Shown piece after piece: positions 14,118 through 19,889 of a DNA stretch of 64,000 bases. This DNA comes from Myxococcota bacterium. GTDB taxonomy: Bacteria; Myxococcota_A; Polyangia; Nannocystales; Nannocystaceae. Position 1 is the first letter of the stretch. Each line of letters starts with the position of its first letter. Below the pieces are notes generated by a model. That model saw only the letters and a list, made by a program, of their open reading frames with translations, ran no database searches and was not told the origin of the DNA. A program made the position numbers and the translations under genes. The stretch lies in assembly GCA_039028615.1 (NCBI GenBank), contig JBCCHT010000028.1, positions 1 through 64,000 of the forward strand. The letters run 5' to 3'.

Positions 14118-15707
14118 ATGGACGACGACCAACGAATGAAGTGCTACGAGCCGGGGGGCAAGCCGCTCGAGCCCTTCTGCTACAACCCACAGCTCAACGC
14201 CGGGCCCAAAGGCCAATACACCGCCGAGTACCAGGGGCCCGACTACGCCAGCGGCGGTGTCCAACTCGGGGACGTATCCGTGTTCATGGGGCTCGAGCCC
14301 ACCACGCAGGCCGCGGAGGTCTTCGCCGAAAACGGTTCGGATAGCTTCAGCCAGTGCTGGGCCGACGATGCGCAGAAACACCTCATGGGCAAGCTGCTCG
14401 GGTGCAATGCAGACCAATGGAGCCACGAGACGCGCCCGGTCGACGGAGCGCAGGAAACGGTCTGCACCTCCCGCTTCAGCGCGCCCGTGGGCGACCTCCC
14501 CCCTCAATACGATGGCGACCTGAAGAACTGGGAGTACGGGCCCACCGAAGAGCCGCTCTTCCTCGACTTCAGCGAGGGCATCAACGGCGAGGTCGGCATG
14601 ATCACCGTGGGCAACAACAAGGGCGGCGGCATCCCCAACGCCAACCGCAACAACTGGGACGACAACGTCGAGGTCGTGTGGGATGAAAGCCTCGGCAAGT
14701 ACGTCTGCCAGCTCGACACCTATATGGTCGTCAAGGGCAAGGGCAAGGACGCGGTGTGGGCCATCAAGAACACGGGCGGCCTGATCACCACCAAGATGTA
14801 CGCTTCGGGCTCGTACGAGGTCCGAGCCAAGATCCCGAAGGCATCCGGCCTCGTATGGGCGATGTGGACGTTCTGGACGGCCGAGACCGACAGCGACCGC
14901 ACTCCCGATCCCACCAAGCACGACCCGTGTGCCGATTCGCGAGACTTCGTGGAGAGCAGCAGCGGCTCGCCTTTGTGGGTGGACCGCACCACCGATCCCG
15001 GGACGCTGCTGCCGCAGCGCGGCAAGGAGATGCCCAATCACGAGATCGACATCGAAATTCCGTCCAATTCCCCGCAGACCGTCGACCCGAGCCATCACCC
15101 GGGCAAGGCGGACAAGTACGACACGCTCAACATGAACTGCTATCGCTGGACCAACGGCAATGGCACGGGCACCTACAACAACCTGTTTGCCCACAACAAA
15201 GCGGGCGACTTTCTGGGCGACGGCGAATACCACACGTACCGCTTCGACTGGCATACGGGCGATCCCGAAAAAGGCATCGCGCCTCGAGTCGACTTCTACT
15301 TCGACGATCAGTACATCGGCACGAACGACGCCATGGTCCCGTACATGGCGGGCCGGCTGTGGGTGATGCTCTGGGCCCCGAACAACGGCCAAGCGGGCGG
15401 CAACGGCTCGTGGAACGGAGTCGTCGACCAGAGCTTCCATGGCACCGAGCTCCCCCCGGAAGGCACCATCGCTCGGTATGCGCGCGTGCTCGTCGAGCAT
15501 GTCCGCGTCACCCCCTACGGCGAGGCGAACGATCGCTATGCGTCCTCGCCCTACGATCAGCCCGCCATGGGTACGGGCCAAGGCTGCACGGACTGCGGCA
15601 AGAAGAACCCGGCGGGCACGACCTCGATCCTGCCGTACTCCACGAAGGACCCGCACGCGCCCGGTGGGATCGAGTGGATCAAAAAGGGGGCTCCCACGAA
15701 ATCGTGA
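14118..15707 (+). CDS. glycoside hydrolase family 16 protein
   Basis: SD GAGGAG; GSYEVRAK, GLVWAMW, catalytic EIDIE, YHTYRFDW, VDFYFDD. Confidence 0.8.
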   Translation: MDDDQRMKCYEPGGKPLEPFCYNPQLNAGPKGQYTAEYQGPDYASGGVQLGDVSVFMGLEPTTQAAEVFAENGSDSFSQCWADDAQKHLMGKLLGCNADQWSHETRPVDGAQETVCTSRFSAPVGDLPPQYDGDLKNWEYGPTEEPLFLDFSEGINGEVGMITVGNNKGGGIPNANRNNWDDNVEVVWDESLGKYVCQLDTYMVVKGKGKDAVWAIKNTGGLITTKMYASGSYEVRAKIPKASGLVWAMWTFWTAETDSDRTPDPTKHDPCADSRDFVESSSGSPLWVDRTTDPGTLLPQRGKEMPNHEIDIEIPSNSPQTVDPSHHPGKADKYDTLNMNCYRWTNGNGTGTYNNLFAHNKAGDFLGDGEYHTYRFDWHTGDPEKGIAPRVDFYFDDQYIGTNDAMVPYMAGRLWVMLWAPNNGQAGGNGSWNGVVDQSFHGTELPPEGTIARYARVLVEHVRVTPYGEANDRYASSPYDQPAMGTGQGCTDCGKKNPAGTTSILPYSTKDPHAPGGIEWIKKGAPTKS

Positions 15708-15722: not shown

Positions 15723-16853
15723 TCACCCGCCCTTGAACACCAGCAGCGGAGTGAGCCGGCGAATCGCTCGGGTCAGGTCACGCTGGGCCCGCATGACCTG
15801 CCCGATGTCCTTGTAGGCCCCGGGCGCTTCCTCGAGCAGCCTCCGGCTCAACCGGCGGTCGAACCAGATGCCCTCCATGGCGTCGGAAAGCTGAGCCCCA
15901 GTGATCCGACGCCGAGCCACCGACCGCGACATCGCGCGGCCGGCCCCATGCGAGCTCGTGCACAGGGCCGCCGTGCACCCGCGCCCCTCCACATGAAAGC
16001 TCGCCGTGCCCATCGAGCCCGGGATGATGCCGAGCTCGCCCGCTCGGGCCGAGATGGCGCCCTTGCGATGGACCCACAGCGCCTGCCCCTCATGCGTCTC
16101 ACGACGGACGAAGTTGTGATGGCAGGCCACCGTGCTGTCCTCCCGAGCCCGAACGCCGAACCGAGCGGCGAGCACCTCCGCCACCCGAGCCACCATGCGC
16201 TCCCGGCTGCGCGCAGCGTAGTCGAGCGCCCACTCGAGATCGGACAGATACGCTCGACCCGCATCGGAGTCGGCCTCGAGCACCGTGATGCCCGCTCGGT
16301 TGCGCCGCCCCTTGCGTTCGTGGGCCTGACGAATGGCCTGGCCCATCCCGCGCGAGCCGCTGTGCACCATCAGCCACAGCCCGCCCGCGTCGTCGGCCTG
16401 GAGCTCCACGAAGTGGTTCCCCCGGCCCAAGGTGCCGAACTGCAGCGCTGCCTCGCGCTCCTTGGTGGCTTCGAGGGCCGCGTCGCTCAACGTACGCTCG
16501 GCGAGCGAGGCCGGCAGCTGCACCCCCGCGGAACGACGATGCCGCATGATGGGGACCGTCTCGTACAGCCCCTCGAGCAGCGCCGCCGCGTGGGCTGCAT
16601 CGGCGAGCAGCTCGGCCGGAGCCTCGAAGGCCACCGCCGCCATGCCGCACCCGATGTCCCCACCGACGGCGGCCGGACACAGCGTGCGCCGAGTCGCGAG
16701 CGCGACCCCGACACAGACCTCCTTCGACAGGTGCACATCGGGCATGACCGCGACGCGGTGCACGTCCTCGTCGCGAGCCAAGCGATCGATCGCCTGCTTC
16801 ACGTCCGCAGACAGCGGCTCCGCCACCCACTGGTGGACCTCAGTACGAATCAT
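15723..16853 (-). CDS. rtcB: RtcB family RNA ligase
   Basis: MPDVH, VGGDIGCGM, GTLGRGNHFVE, HSGSRG, HHN, HRKGA, PGSMG, SSHGAGR, EEAPGAYK all present; SD GAGGAGG. Confidence 0.95.
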   Translation of the reverse strand: MIRTEVHQWVAEPLSADVKQAIDRLARDEDVHRVAVMPDVHLSKEVCVGVALATRRTLCPAAVGGDIGCGMAAVAFEAPAELLADAAHAAALLEGLYETVPIMRHRRSAGVQLPASLAERTLSDAALEATKEREAALQFGTLGRGNHFVELQADDAGGLWLMVHSGSRGMGQAIRQAHERKGRRNRAGITVLEADSDAGRAYLSDLEWALDYAARSRERMVARVAEVLAARFGVRAREDSTVACHHNFVRRETHEGQALWVHRKGAISARAGELGIIPGSMGTASFHVEGRGCTAALCTSSHGAGRAMSRSVARRRITGAQLSDAMEGIWFDRRLSRRLLEEAPGAYKDIGQVMRAQRDLTRAIRRLTPLLVFKGG

Positions 16854-17271
16854 CGTCGTCCTCCTCGGGGTGCAGCAACACCGCAGCCGGCGTCACGATG
16901 AAGTGCAGATGTGGCGTCCGCTTGCGGTGCAGCGCTCCCGCGATCTCCGATCGCAGCAGCCCTCGCGCCGCATCCAGGTGCGTGCGCACCTGCGCCGCTC
17001 GCTCGGCCTCGTCGACGATGACCTGCACGAGCAACGAGCGCCCGCCCGGCTCGGGCCTCACCGCGTTCACCCACAGCCCCTGCAAGACAGGGTCGTGGAG
17101 CTCTCCGCCCAGGGCGATATCCAGCCGTCGCTGAACCTGACGGCACATTTGTAGAGTTTTGATGTCGGTGTCGGTCTGTCCTCCAAAGAAAAGGGTCTGA
17201 AGGTCCGGGGCATGCTCGCTCGGGACCTGGTGACGGGAGCCTCGCTTCCGTCGGTTGCGTTTCGAAGTCAT
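16840..17271 (-). CDS. RbfA-like protein (ribosome-binding factor A paralogue)
   Basis: DPVLQGLWVNAV..LLVQV..LDAARGLLRSEIAGALHRKRTPHLHF matches the RbfA KH-fold signature (L..A.G.lR..l...l..R.tP.L.F); basic N-tail; overlaps rtcB start by 14 nt. Confidence 0.8.
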   Translation of the reverse strand: MTSKRNRRKRGSRHQVPSEHAPDLQTLFFGGQTDTDIKTLQMCRQVQRRLDIALGGELHDPVLQGLWVNAVRPEPGGRSLLVQVIVDEAERAAQVRTHLDAARGLLRSEIAGALHRKRTPHLHFIVTPAAVLLHPEEDDDDSY

Positions 17272-17278
17272 TGTCGAT

Positions 17279-17448
17279 GGACTCTCACTGCGGCCACGCC
17301 AAACCGGCGCGACCCACTGGGGTAACGAAAGAGGGTGAGAGCCTCGGGTCCACGGGCACCACGCACGCAAATGCAGGCGTAGCTGCGCTACACCGACACT
17401 CCACGCGTAGTGAGGCCTAGGGGCGGCCTAGCGTCGTACGGGCGTGGA
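17279..17448 (-). promoter_or_regulatory. putative translational attenuator (segments 1:2, 2:3, 3:4)
   Basis: seg1 UCCACGC (17448-17442) pairs seg2 GCGUGGA; seg2 GUGGAGUGUCGG (17404-17393) pairs seg3 CCGAGGCUCUCAC (17347-17335); seg3 GGCUCUCAC pairs seg4 GUGAGAGUC (RBS region of RbfA-like gene). Confidence 0.6.
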
Positions 17449-17490
17449 AACGAGGCTCGACTTCGATCCGCTGGTGACAAGGGGCTGCAT
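17428..17490 (-). CDS. putative 20-aa leader peptide MQPLVTSGSKSSLVSTPVRR
   Basis: GGAAAGGAGG SD 6 nt before ATG at 17490; TAG at 17430-17428; below ORF-track size cutoff. Confidence 0.65.
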   Translation of the reverse strand: MQPLVTSGSKSSLVSTPVRR

Positions 17491-17546
17491 GGTCGTCCTC
17501 CTTTCCTCGTCGCTCGCCGATGCACTCGGCCGACTACGACCGACGA

Positions 17547-17575
17547 AAACTAGGGGGCAGCCTCCACCCTGTCAA
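17547..17575 (-). promoter_or_regulatory. sigma70-type promoter TTGACA-N17-TAGTTT
   Basis: Perfect -35, 17-nt spacer, TA---T -10; about 55 nt upstream of leader ATG. Confidence 0.7.
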
Positions 17576-17832
17576 GGGAGTTTGCGCCGGGCTGGTCGTG
17601 TCCAAGACATTGCGGTTCACGACGAACCGAAGCACCGACCCCGCGTCGCGTCGGTCGCATCCAAGGCCGCGAGCGATGCATCGTCGGAGACGCGGATGCC
17701 GAGTCACCCCGCGCGGCGAATCAACCGCCGCGATCGAGGGCCTGCGCGGCCGCGAACGAACCAAAATCGCGCACATTCCGCAGCGCCCGAGCGTTCCTTC
17801 CAAGGTCACACTCGGCCCTCCGCACCAAAGCC

Positions 17833-17860
17833 TTGACTGCCTCGCAGACATGCTTAGTGT
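17833..17860 (+). promoter_or_regulatory. possible promoter for htpG, TTGACT-N16-TAGTGT
   Basis: Consensus-like hexamers about 80 nt upstream of htpG start. Confidence 0.35.
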
Positions 17861-17942
17861 GCGGCCGCATCCTACTGGCGACGGTTGCGCGAGGACCCCG
17901 TCCCCCGCCGTCGCCAAGGCCCAGCCCACCGAGGAATCTCCC

Positions 17943-19889
17943 GTGACCGACTCTGCTGCCCAGACCCACGAGTTCAAGGCCGAGGTCGCCGCCGTTTTAC
18001 GCCTGGTGACCAACTCGCTGTACACCAACCGCGAGATCTTCCTGCGCGAGCTCATCTCCAACGCCTCCGATGCGCTCGACAAGGCCCGCTTCACCGCCCT
18101 GGTGGACAAGGACCTCCGCGATCAAGAGATCGAGCCGCACATCCAGCTGACGCTGGACAAGGCGCAGGGCGTGCTGGTCATCGAAGACACCGGCATCGGC
18201 ATGACGGCCGAAGAGGCGCAGAACAACCTCGGCACCATCGCCCACTCGGGCACGCTGCGCTTCCTCGAGCAAGCCGCGGCCGACAAGGCCGAGGGCAAGA
18301 AGGCCGACCTGAACCTCATCGGTCAGTTCGGGGTCGGCTTCTACTCGGCGTTCATGGTCGCCACGCGGATCGACGTGCACAGCCTCTCCGCCCGCCCCGG
18401 GCAGGAGCCCGTGCACTGGAGCAGCGACGGCAACGGCTTCTCCGTGTCGCCCTCCGCCCGCAAGTTCCGGGGCACTCGCATCGAGCTGACGCTCAACGAC
18501 GAGGGCAAGGAGTTCCTCGAGCGCTTCCGCGTCGAGCACATCGTCAAGCGGTACAGCAACTTCGTCCTGTACCCCATCAAGCTCAAGGTCATCGACGACA
18601 AGGGCGAGATCGACGGCGAGAACACGCAGGCCAACGCCGCCAACGCGTTCTGGACTCGCAGCCCCAAGGACGTCACCGACGACGACTACAAGGAGTTTTA
18701 CACCCACCTGATGGGTGGTTTCGTGATGCCCGGCGACGAGCCGCTGGCCCGCGTGCACCTGTCGCTCGACGCTCCCATCCAGTTCAAGTCGGTGCTCTTC
18801 GTGCCGGGGCGGCGTCCGCCCGATCTGTTCGCCGAGGACAGCCGCGCGCTGCAGCTGTACGCGCGTCGCGTGCTGGTGATGGAGAGCTGCGACAAGCTGC
18901 TGCCCACCTACCTGCGCTTCATCCGGGGCGTCGTGGACTCCGAGGACCTGCCGCTCAACGTCTCCCGCGAGATGCTGCAGGAGCACCAGTCGGTGGCCGC
19001 CATCCGCCGTCAGCTGGTCCGCAAGGTGCTCAAGACCCTGGCCGACCTCGCCAAGAAGGACGCCGACAAGTACGCCCTGTTGTGGCAGGAGTTCGGCGTG
19101 TTCCTCAAAGAGGGCCTGCACACCGACAACGGCCACCGCGAGCAGCTCACCGGGCTCCTCCGCTTCGAGAGCACCACCAGCGAGGGCAAGGGCATCTCGC
19201 TCGACGAGTACGTCGAGGGCATGCCCGAGGGCCAAGAGGCCATCTACTACATCACGGGTGACTCCACCGAGGCGCTGGCCCGCAGCCCGCACCTCGAGGC
19301 CTGTCGCTCGCGCGGCTACGCCGTGCTCATGATGACCGACGCGGTCGACGAGTGGGTGGTCCAGGACCTCAGCGAGCACAAGGGCAAGCCCCTGCGCAGC
19401 GTGACCCAGGGCGACCTGGGCCTCGATGGCAGCGAGAAGGACGACGAGGCCAAAGCCGAGGGCGAGGACGGCGAGTCCAAGGACGAGTCGGCCAAGGCCA
19501 CCGCCATCGATCCGCTGCTGCGCGCCGCCAAAGAGGTGCTCGGTGAGCGCATCAAGGAGGTTCGCGCCTCCTCGCGCCTCACCGACAGCGCCGCGTGCCT
19601 GGTCGACGCCGAGGGCGGTCTGAGCCGCAACATGGAGCGGATCCTTCGCATGTCGAACCGCGACGTGCCCACCCGCCCGCGCATCCTCGAGCTCAACCCC
19701 ACCCACCCCTTCGTGGTGGCCGCCAACGCGCTCGCGGGCGAGGGTGAGGCCTCGGACAAGCTCGGCTCGTGGGTCGAGCTGCTGCACGACCAGGCCAACC
19801 TCGCCGAGGGCACCGTGGCCGACCCGGCCGGCATGGTCCAACGCATCCAGGCGCTGCTCGATCAGGCGGCTGGGGTCGACGCCAAGTGA
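17943..19889 (+). CDS. htpG: molecular chaperone HtpG (Hsp90)
   Basis: SLYTNREIFLRELISNASDALDK, IEDTGIGM, GTIAHSGT, IGQFGVGFYSAF, DSEDLPLNVSRE; GTG start after GAGGA. Confidence 0.97.
   Translation: MTDSAAQTHEFKAEVAAVLRLVTNSLYTNREIFLRELISNASDALDKARFTALVDKDLRDQEIEPHIQLTLDKAQGVLVIEDTGIGMTAEEAQNNLGTIAHSGTLRFLEQAAADKAEGKKADLNLIGQFGVGFYSAFMVATRIDVHSLSARPGQEPVHWSSDGNGFSVSPSARKFRGTRIELTLNDEGKEFLERFRVEHIVKRYSNFVLYPIKLKVIDDKGEIDGENTQANAANAFWTRSPKDVTDDDYKEFYTHLMGGFVMPGDEPLARVHLSLDAPIQFKSVLFVPGRRPPDLFAEDSRALQLYARRVLVMESCDKLLPTYLRFIRGVVDSEDLPLNVSREMLQEHQSVAAIRRQLVRKVLKTLADLAKKDADKYALLWQEFGVFLKEGLHTDNGHREQLTGLLRFESTTSEGKGISLDEYVEGMPEGQEAIYYITGDSTEALARSPHLEACRSRGYAVLMMTDAVDEWVVQDLSEHKGKPLRSVTQGDLGLDGSEKDDEAKAEGEDGESKDESAKATAIDPLLRAAKEVLGERIKEVRASSRLTDSAACLVDAEGGLSRNMERILRMSNRDVPTRPRILELNPTHPFVVAANALAGEGEASDKLGSWVELLHDQANLAEGTVADPAGMVQRIQALLDQAAGVDAK

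Follow-up and report, generated by a model that had tools for sequence, protein, structure and literature searches.

An RbfA paralogue encoded upstream of, and overlapping with, a dedicated branch of RtcB ligases in Myxococcota: a possible module for the repair of small-subunit rRNA

RNA ligases of the RtcB family seal ends carrying a 3'-phosphate or a 2',3'-cyclic phosphate to 5'-OH ends in a reaction that depends on GTP and Mn. To our knowledge, the RtcB2–PrfH pair is the only dedicated ribosome-repair system that has been worked out. Its repair requires the prior dismantling of the 70S ribosome. In Escherichia coli ATCC 25922, RtcB2–PrfH is described as a ribosome rescue and repair module (PMC9304027, PMC13166195), in which RtcB2 reseals the 16S ribosomal RNA (rRNA) of 30S subunits cut between A1493 and G1494 (PMC9304027). 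The E. coli enzyme RtcB is also described as rejoining the 43-nucleotide 3' fragment of 16S rRNA cut off by MazF, in a source where “RtcB interacts weakly with ribosomes” stands as a section heading (PMC5416887). Ribosome-binding factor A (RbfA) acts in the same region: its KH domain holds G1530–A1536 of 16S rRNA in the mRNA exit channel, next to h28 and the linker between h44 and h45, Phe78 of the E. coli protein stacks on A1534–C1535 of the 16S 3' end, and the factor, wedged against h28, prevents this linker from docking (PMC8177701). Here, we describe a locus in which an RbfA-like protein and an RtcB-family protein are encoded together, in a 64,000-nucleotide stretch of a Myxococcota genome (contig JBCCHT010000028.1, positions 1 to 64,000; hereafter, the window). 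We refer to the RbfA-like protein as RbfL, a name given here to a well-separated clade of RbfA paralogues. Our analysis leads us to propose, tentatively and at somewhat less than an even chance, that RbfL and its RtcB are a coupled module in which RbfL, positioned on the 30S subunit near the 16S 3' end, presents or holds broken rRNA for resealing by RtcB.

The association between the two genes was surveyed from the RtcB side in a sample of 201 genomes of the same class, where an orthologue was defined by at least 49% identity and a best stretch of at least 389 bits to the profile. All 18 genomes with such an orthologue, the source genome included, had an RbfA-like open reading frame (ORF) directly upstream; this count covers located matches, and 14 further weak RtcB matches lie outside it. 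The neighborhood proposed in the initial annotation of this DNA, made from the sequence before the present analysis, is therefore conserved beside rtcB throughout this RtcB branch in the sample. In the next tier of RtcBs (about 40–52% identity), an upstream RBFA ORF was found at 2 of 12 loci (L093 and L101), and these ORFs belonged to a different RbfA subclade. This second pairing occurs in two genomes (L031/L101 on contig C7 of G059, and L093 on contig C284 of G095). Its RbfA paralogue is less diverged (72 bits to Pfam RBFA) and sister to the canonical clade, and directly downstream lies a 396-amino-acid RtcB of another branch; G059 additionally keeps a canonical rbfA on contig C45.

The two genes are not simply adjacent. 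The ORF listing agreed with the initial annotation of a 143-amino-acid RbfA-like ORF that overlaps the RtcB gene by 14 nucleotides (16840–16853). The ATG of RtcB sits 14 nucleotides inside the RbfL ORF, the sequence 5' of this start is CCCGAGGAGGACGACG, and a Shine–Dalgarno sequence for RtcB, GAGGAGG, is formed by codons of the acidic tail of RbfL. Similarly, among 17 RbfL-type linked loci, 15 have an RbfL stop and an RtcB start that overlap by 1 to 17 nucleotides, and GGAGG is typically encoded in the acidic tail; the two exceptions are L019, which is without a candidate start, and an L031-type locus with a 2-nucleotide gap. This arrangement suggests that RbfL and RtcB are made from one translationally coupled operon.

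The assignment of RbfL to the RbfA family is based on profile searches, a predicted structure and a phylogeny. RBFA (PF02033) was the sole family matched in a Pfam scan, at 34.7 bits against a cut-off of 34.7 (34.9 bits in the whole-genome scan), and the protein fell far below the cut-offs of the NCBIfam rbfA equivalogs (TIGR00082: 22.6 bits against 51.15). An AlphaFold2 model built from 33 aligned sequences had a mean predicted local distance difference test (pLDDT) value of 80.6, with means of 88–97 for the ten-residue blocks across residues 41–130. Its elements, i.e., helix 37–57, strands 67–73 and 79–86, helices 89–101 and 103–114 on either side of a kink, and strand 121–128, follow the order of a type-II KH fold (α-β-β-α-kink-α-β). 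A Foldseek search of the PDB gave ten best matches that were all RbfA structures, bacterial or mitochondrial, with E values of 6e-6 to 3e-4; they included 7afl and, with E values of 6e-6 to 2e-4 and target-normalised template modelling (TM) scores of 0.70–0.83, 1jos, 7afq, 2dyj, 8bxa and 8byv. The RbfA KH fold that had been ascribed to this ORF is thus predicted both by the order of elements in the model and by its top structure matches. A sequence search of the PDB gave a dehydrogenase as its single match (E = 0.045), which we judged to be due to chance. The 42 RbfL rows formed a clade apart from the canonical RbfAs, with support of 100/99, when 60 RbfA-domain rows were placed in a maximum-likelihood tree.

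RbfL stands beside, rather than in place of, the housekeeping factor. The source genome (12.27 Mb in 94 contigs) has a second, canonical rbfA on contig C48, within the order nusA-ylxR-infB-rbfA-truB-pnp and with 101.6 bits to RBFA, so RbfL is not its only rbfA, in line with the paralogue that the initial annotation had supposed. Canonical rbfA is also kept in all five tested relatives that carry the pair (86–98 bits). RbfL itself lies outside the orthologous context, having GH16-like and HtpG genes as neighbors and not nusA-infB-rbfA-truB. A Pfam scan of the flanking ORFs likewise bore out the earlier observation that no nusA, infB, truB, rtcA, rtcR or prfH adjoins the pair.

The layout of RbfL comprises a basic N-terminal head (residues 1–14), an aromatic LFF motif (27–29), the KH core (37–128) and an acidic tail. 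Across the family alignment, a basic head is part of the N-terminal extension, and most rows also have an aromatic LFF or YF motif there; a second form of the extension, LCxELxPDDGxDPR, contributes another conserved Cys. Several hallmarks of RNA binding appear to be kept, namely the A102-R103-G104 motif at the helix kink, whose Gly is present in most family rows, the R116-K117-R118-T119-P120 segment within RKRTPxLxF ahead of the final strand, and a core that is mildly basic. The net charge of this core is like that of canonical RbfA and is not decisive. Cys43 (codon 17143–17145), in the motif QLCRQV of helix 1, does not vary among 25 RbfL sequences and also occurs in those lone RbfL members, i.e., members without an adjacent RtcB, whose motif could be placed, whereas canonical RbfA has no Cys there; metal binding, a redox role and an RNA contact are possible functions of the conserved Cys. 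The profile match begins no later than position 17 in 22 of 24 RtcB-linked rows and in 6 of 17 lone rows. A tie between the N-terminal extension and RtcB linkage was nevertheless set aside, as most of the rows behind the profile were linked ones and the genomes, being related, do not count as independent. Among 1043 longer candidate proteins, no RbfL fusion was found at E ≤ 1e-3, which is weak evidence.

RbfL is not a chance ORF, because its homologues align at 23–83% identity. Conservation of the N-terminus among these homologues favors the ATG at 17271 over an alternative TTG at 17370, which would give 176 amino acids. A recorded protein of 102 amino acids (P0002) has the same sequence as the C-terminal 71% of the ORF (window 16840–17145). 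It begins at Met42 and so is without the conserved N-terminal extension; it is probably a shorter automatic call with a mis-called start.

The RtcB of the pair scored 280.4 bits to Pfam RtcB (PF01139), for which the cut-off is 27. Its motifs GGDIGCG, GNHF, HSGSRG, HHNF and SHGAGR align to the RtcBs of Pyrococcus horikoshii and Thermus thermophilus and are invariant in 14 orthologues, in keeping with the initial annotation of a protein with all catalytic motifs intact. Equally invariant in the 14 orthologues are Asp66, Cys69, His147, His164, His246 and His302, which we take, from the P. horikoshii literature, to be the metal-binding and guanylyl-His residues. The protein is therefore a predicted 3'-phosphate/5'-OH RNA ligase with an intact ligase site. 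In a quick tree of 35 rows, 23 RbfL-linked RtcBs formed one clade (Shimodaira–Hasegawa-like approximate likelihood ratio test, SH-aLRT, 100); the coverage filter left out the C4, C8 and C25 paralogues of the source genome and some split copies. Such a dedicated clade suggests adaptation to the RbfL partner. In several draft genomes, the linked RtcB lies in two frames or in two tblastn pieces: L014/L091 (G040), L051 (G542), L056 (G291) and L057 (G461). Either frameshifts or assembly errors account for this, so that some copies may be broken.

RtcB-family matches were detected at five loci of the source genome. Besides the present locus (C28), there is an RtcB behind the single archease of the genome (C4:165445–167287), an RtcB before RtcA (C16, approximately 130601–132300), an RtcB before a PrfH-like gene (C25:42312–44041; 252.7 bits against a cut-off of 271.8 for release_rtcB, and 88.8 against 166.65 for prfH), and an RtcB domain that occupies residues 435–837 of an 838-amino-acid maximal ORF, the N-terminal part of which has no Pfam match (C8:221417–222625). 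The RbfL pair is one of several partner-specific RtcB systems in this genome. The colicin E3-type rRNase domain (PF09000) gave no match in the source genome, but the control for this search was also silent.

A prediction of the RbfL–RtcB complex gave a median score of 0.48 (runs of 0.48, 0.42 and 0.55), while the best of three controls scored 0.00; the verdict of the procedure was weak support. The partners had pLDDT values of 64 or more, and 27% or more of the contacts agreed between runs. Of 157 solved complexes, 116 reached the score mark, as did 2 of 215 mismatched pairs; 18 of those 157 complexes, together with both mismatches, passed with scores of 0.60 or less. Because the reading frames overlap and the co-occurrence is strict, we somewhat favor direct binding between the two proteins.

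Combining these observations with the position of canonical RbfA on the ribosome, we consider that RbfL may dock on the free 30S subunit at or near the RbfA site, close to the 3' end of 16S rRNA. It would hold broken 16S rRNA, or its 3' minor domain, and would recruit or retain its own RtcB, which would then reseal the break. A more specific version of this coupled module, which we regard as rather unlikely, is that RbfL acts to recognise damage in free 30S subunits: it would capture the 3' terminal segment of 16S rRNA in the mRNA exit channel, block initiation by the nicked subunit and pass the break to its private RtcB. The pair would then be a system of small-subunit repair independent of PrfH, with the lone RbfL representing its ancestral gatekeeper half.

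A number of results weigh against the coupled module. With respect to RbfL, the Pfam score is merely at the threshold, the C-terminal extension of canonical RbfA is missing from the protein, and the equivalent of Phe78 appears not to be conserved: the residue after the kink motif is Leu105 in RbfL and varies among L, H, Y, W, F, R, E and Q across the family. With respect to RtcB, the protein is not of the RtcB2 type (148.2 bits to TIGR03073, release_rtcB, against a cut-off of 271.8) and is nearer to the RtcA-linked paralogue of the genome (40% identity), and the substrate sets of E. coli RtcB1 and RtcB2 exclude each other, as a section heading in PMC9304027 puts it. The predicted complex falls in the weak band of scores and came without a returned interface. 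The presence of an RtcB–PrfH-like pair in the same genome complicates a repair reading as well; this coexistence suggests that the RbfL pair acts on another target or on another state of the ribosome.

The distribution of RbfL counts on the same side. A survey of 201 genomes of the class from the RbfL side examined 30 loci, of which 18, including the present one, had RtcB directly downstream, 7 were canonical infB-rbfA-truB loci, and 5 (L021, L025, L026, L028 and L037) had neither arrangement; at four of these (L021, L025, L026 and L028), RbfL had no RtcB within 1.5 kb. When 401 genomes of the phylum were searched with the RbfL profile and 30 loci were examined, 10 were RtcB-linked (the present one included, and 4 outside the class), 7 were canonical and 13 were lone RbfL. 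Two of these 13 end at a contig edge, and the 11 that could be assessed adjoin unrelated genes (cupin, PAP2, acyltransferase, CoA transferase and others). Five of five genomes with a lone RbfL were without this RtcB branch, their best match being at 37–41% identity, and one of the five had no RtcB match at all at E ≤ 1e-10. Linked and lone RbfLs are intermixed in the tree, requiring nine changes. The linkage is thus one-sided: RbfL often occurred without RtcB, but no case of this RtcB without RbfL was seen. Because lone RbfL occurs in genomes without this RtcB branch, RbfL has a role that is independent of RtcB; and because RbfL occurs without RtcB and not vice versa, recognition or holding would fall to RbfL, with RtcB as an added effector. 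The proposal in the initial annotation that the RbfA paralogue recruits RtcB stands in part: the predicted KH fold, the second rbfA and the conservation beside rtcB agree with it, the predicted contact is weak, and the frequency of RbfL without RtcB, the type of the RtcB and the RtcB–PrfH-like pair of the genome complicate it.

Several of these points would also fit another arrangement, in which RbfL is a subunit that confers RNA-binding specificity on RtcB or activates it, as a KH clamp or in an archease-like manner, for non-ribosomal RNA such as cleaved tRNA or mRNA, and does not dock on the 30S subunit. It would account for an RtcB branch that is nearer to the RtcA-type ligase than to RtcB2, for a gene product of about 140 amino acids in the position that archease occupies at the C4 RtcB, for the unconserved Phe78 position and marginal Pfam score, and for a predicted binding to RtcB that is weak yet above the control. 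However, the best fold match of RbfL is RbfA itself and not generic KH proteins or archease, RBFA alone was returned by its Pfam scan, and a pure ligase cofactor would not be expected in genomes that lack this RtcB. We consider this explanation unlikely.

The region upstream of the pair bears on how it might be controlled. At 13 of the 17 linked loci, an ORF of 15–20 codons with a Shine–Dalgarno sequence was found 121–226 nucleotides upstream; SSL recurs near its end, and the leader ORFs of linked loci often end in TAG. Upstream of lone RbfL genes and at further linked loci, there were ORFs of merely 8–14 codons with no shared sequence, except for two of 24 and 27 codons (L047 and L061). In Pseudomonas aeruginosa, the leader PA5471.1 lies before armZ, an RtcB-like gene whose product is an anti-repressor, and prfH, and it is described as responding to stalled ribosomes (PMC12057347). 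The present locus resembles PA5471.1-armZ-prfH in having a short leader ORF before an RtcB-family gene, but the leader peptide differs. By analogy, the leader ORF may switch the operon on when translation falters.

A leader of this kind could also support a looser relationship, in which RbfL and RtcB act in parallel and without a complex: RbfL would be a 30S gatekeeper in times of stress that, in the manner of RbfA, bars immature or damaged subunits from initiation, RtcB would mend any broken RNA, and their coupling would be co-expression under a stall-sensing leader. The frequency of RbfL without RtcB, the conservation of the leader ORF and the weak complex score are all consistent with this, as is the report that RbfA suppresses translation by immature 30S subunits (PMC7145577). 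On the other hand, a gene order in which RbfL is directly upstream in 18 of 18 cases, with overlapping frames, is tighter than shared regulation needs, and the dedicated RtcB clade suggests that the ligase has adapted to a partner. The probability that we assign to parallel action is low.

Finally, the pair might serve ribosome biogenesis and not damage, with RbfL holding the 16S 3' region late in 30S maturation and RtcB joining or circularising processing intermediates. We know of no rRNA ligation step in bacteria, which counts against this idea. Every genome checked still has its canonical rbfA, the pair is sporadic in distribution (18 of the 201 class genomes), and an operon controlled by a leader fits a stress response better than a housekeeping function. 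In its favor, RbfA is described as a late 30S assembly factor at the 3' end and h28 (PMC8177701). On balance, we consider a role in biogenesis very unlikely.

The RbfL family is large. At E ≤ 1e-10, the RbfL profile matched 1677 representatives of clusters built at 50% identity; at E ≤ 1e-30, the number was 69. We estimate that most of the 1677 are of the RbfL type, because canonical RbfAs score about 35–56 bits to this profile in the genome scan. Ten cluster representatives were looked up; four of them were named, all as “ribosome-binding factor A,” and one of the ten came from a Phycisphaerae metagenome-assembled genome (MAG), while a closer relative was named from Myxococcota. The family therefore reaches beyond Myxococcota. 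A search of genome contigs with the single RbfL protein gave one distant match (L040; 39% identity over residues 49–116), which came from a Spirochaetes MAG, and no RtcB was found on the 7.9-kb contig that carries it. For the Phycisphaerae member (P0117), no relative was found in the search of metagenome contigs.

The features of the locus are listed in Table 1. In the Pfam scan of the window ORFs, the genes flanking the pair were GH16-like, OmpA-like, HtpG and ferrochelatase. The GH16-like ORF (14118–15707, plus strand, 529 amino acids) is convergent with the RtcB gene; it has a short GH16 match at residues 216–253 (29.3 bits), and the remainder is without a family match. The HtpG (Hsp90) ORF (17520–19889, plus strand) is divergent from the leader region, so that one intergenic region is common to the heat-shock gene and the putative repair genes. 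Its maximal length is 789 amino acids, but the true start is probably later, because the Hsp90/ATPase match begins near residue 172. A search of sequencing runs listed no RNA run carrying the sequence and one DNA run that does, a marine metagenome that may be its source.

Table 1. Features of the RbfL–RtcB locus, with positions in the window.
Feature	Position	Strand	Description
RtcB-family ligase (predicted)	15723..16853	minus	376 amino acids, ATG start; Pfam RtcB and catalytic motifs
RbfL (RbfA-like paralogue)	16840..17271	minus	143 amino acids from ATG 17271; Pfam RBFA at cut-off
Putative RbfL–RtcB translational-coupling junction	16840..16869	minus	14-nucleotide overlap and internal Shine–Dalgarno sequence
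Leader ORF	17428..17490	minus	20 codons, MQPLVTSGSKSSLVSTPVRR, TAG stop; strong Shine–Dalgarno sequence, 219 nucleotides 5' of the RbfL start

No published description of an RtcB–RbfA pairing was found in the literature, but the main survey of RtcB neighborhoods (PMC5062991) was outside that check, so a prior mention is possible. If the coupled module is correct, different ribosome-binding folds have been enlisted in bacteria to direct RNA ligases to rRNA. A large, unstudied family of RbfA paralogues, routinely annotated plainly as “ribosome-binding factor A,” would also gain a function, and there would be a partial explanation for the five or so RtcB paralogues of myxobacterial-type genomes, where each has a partner of its own.

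Compared with the systems described so far, RbfL resembles canonical RbfA in its predicted fold, the A-x-G kink motif and the conserved basic-Pro-Leu-Phe strand, but it forms a separate clade outside the nusA-infB-truB operon, with the invariant Cys43 and an added basic and aromatic N-terminal extension. The archease–RtcB pair, as on contig C4, likewise has a small gene of similar length upstream of RtcB; RbfL, however, matches RBFA and RbfA structures and not archease (PF01951). The RtcBA/RtcR system of E. coli contains the type of ligase closest to the present RtcB and offers a precedent for the rejoining of a 16S 3' fragment, the part that RbfA holds, whereas at our locus no rtcA or rtcR adjoins RtcB and a paralogue of a ribosome factor is attached instead. 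With RtcB2–PrfH, the pair shares a dedicated RtcB branch, a two-gene operon that includes a paralogue of a ribosome-binding translation factor, and a sporadic distribution. The differences are that RbfL is a KH-fold RbfA paralogue and not a release-factor homologue, and therefore neither peptidyl-tRNA hydrolysis nor A-site recognition is expected of it; that the RbfL gene lies upstream of RtcB; and that 16S rRNA, which RtcB2 reseals, is a putative substrate of the present RtcB. RbfL–RtcB thus parallels RtcB2–PrfH but is not a member of that system. What is new in our proposal is an RtcB repair module whose partner is a paralogue of the assembly factor RbfA, which would take its place alongside the known RtcB partner systems.

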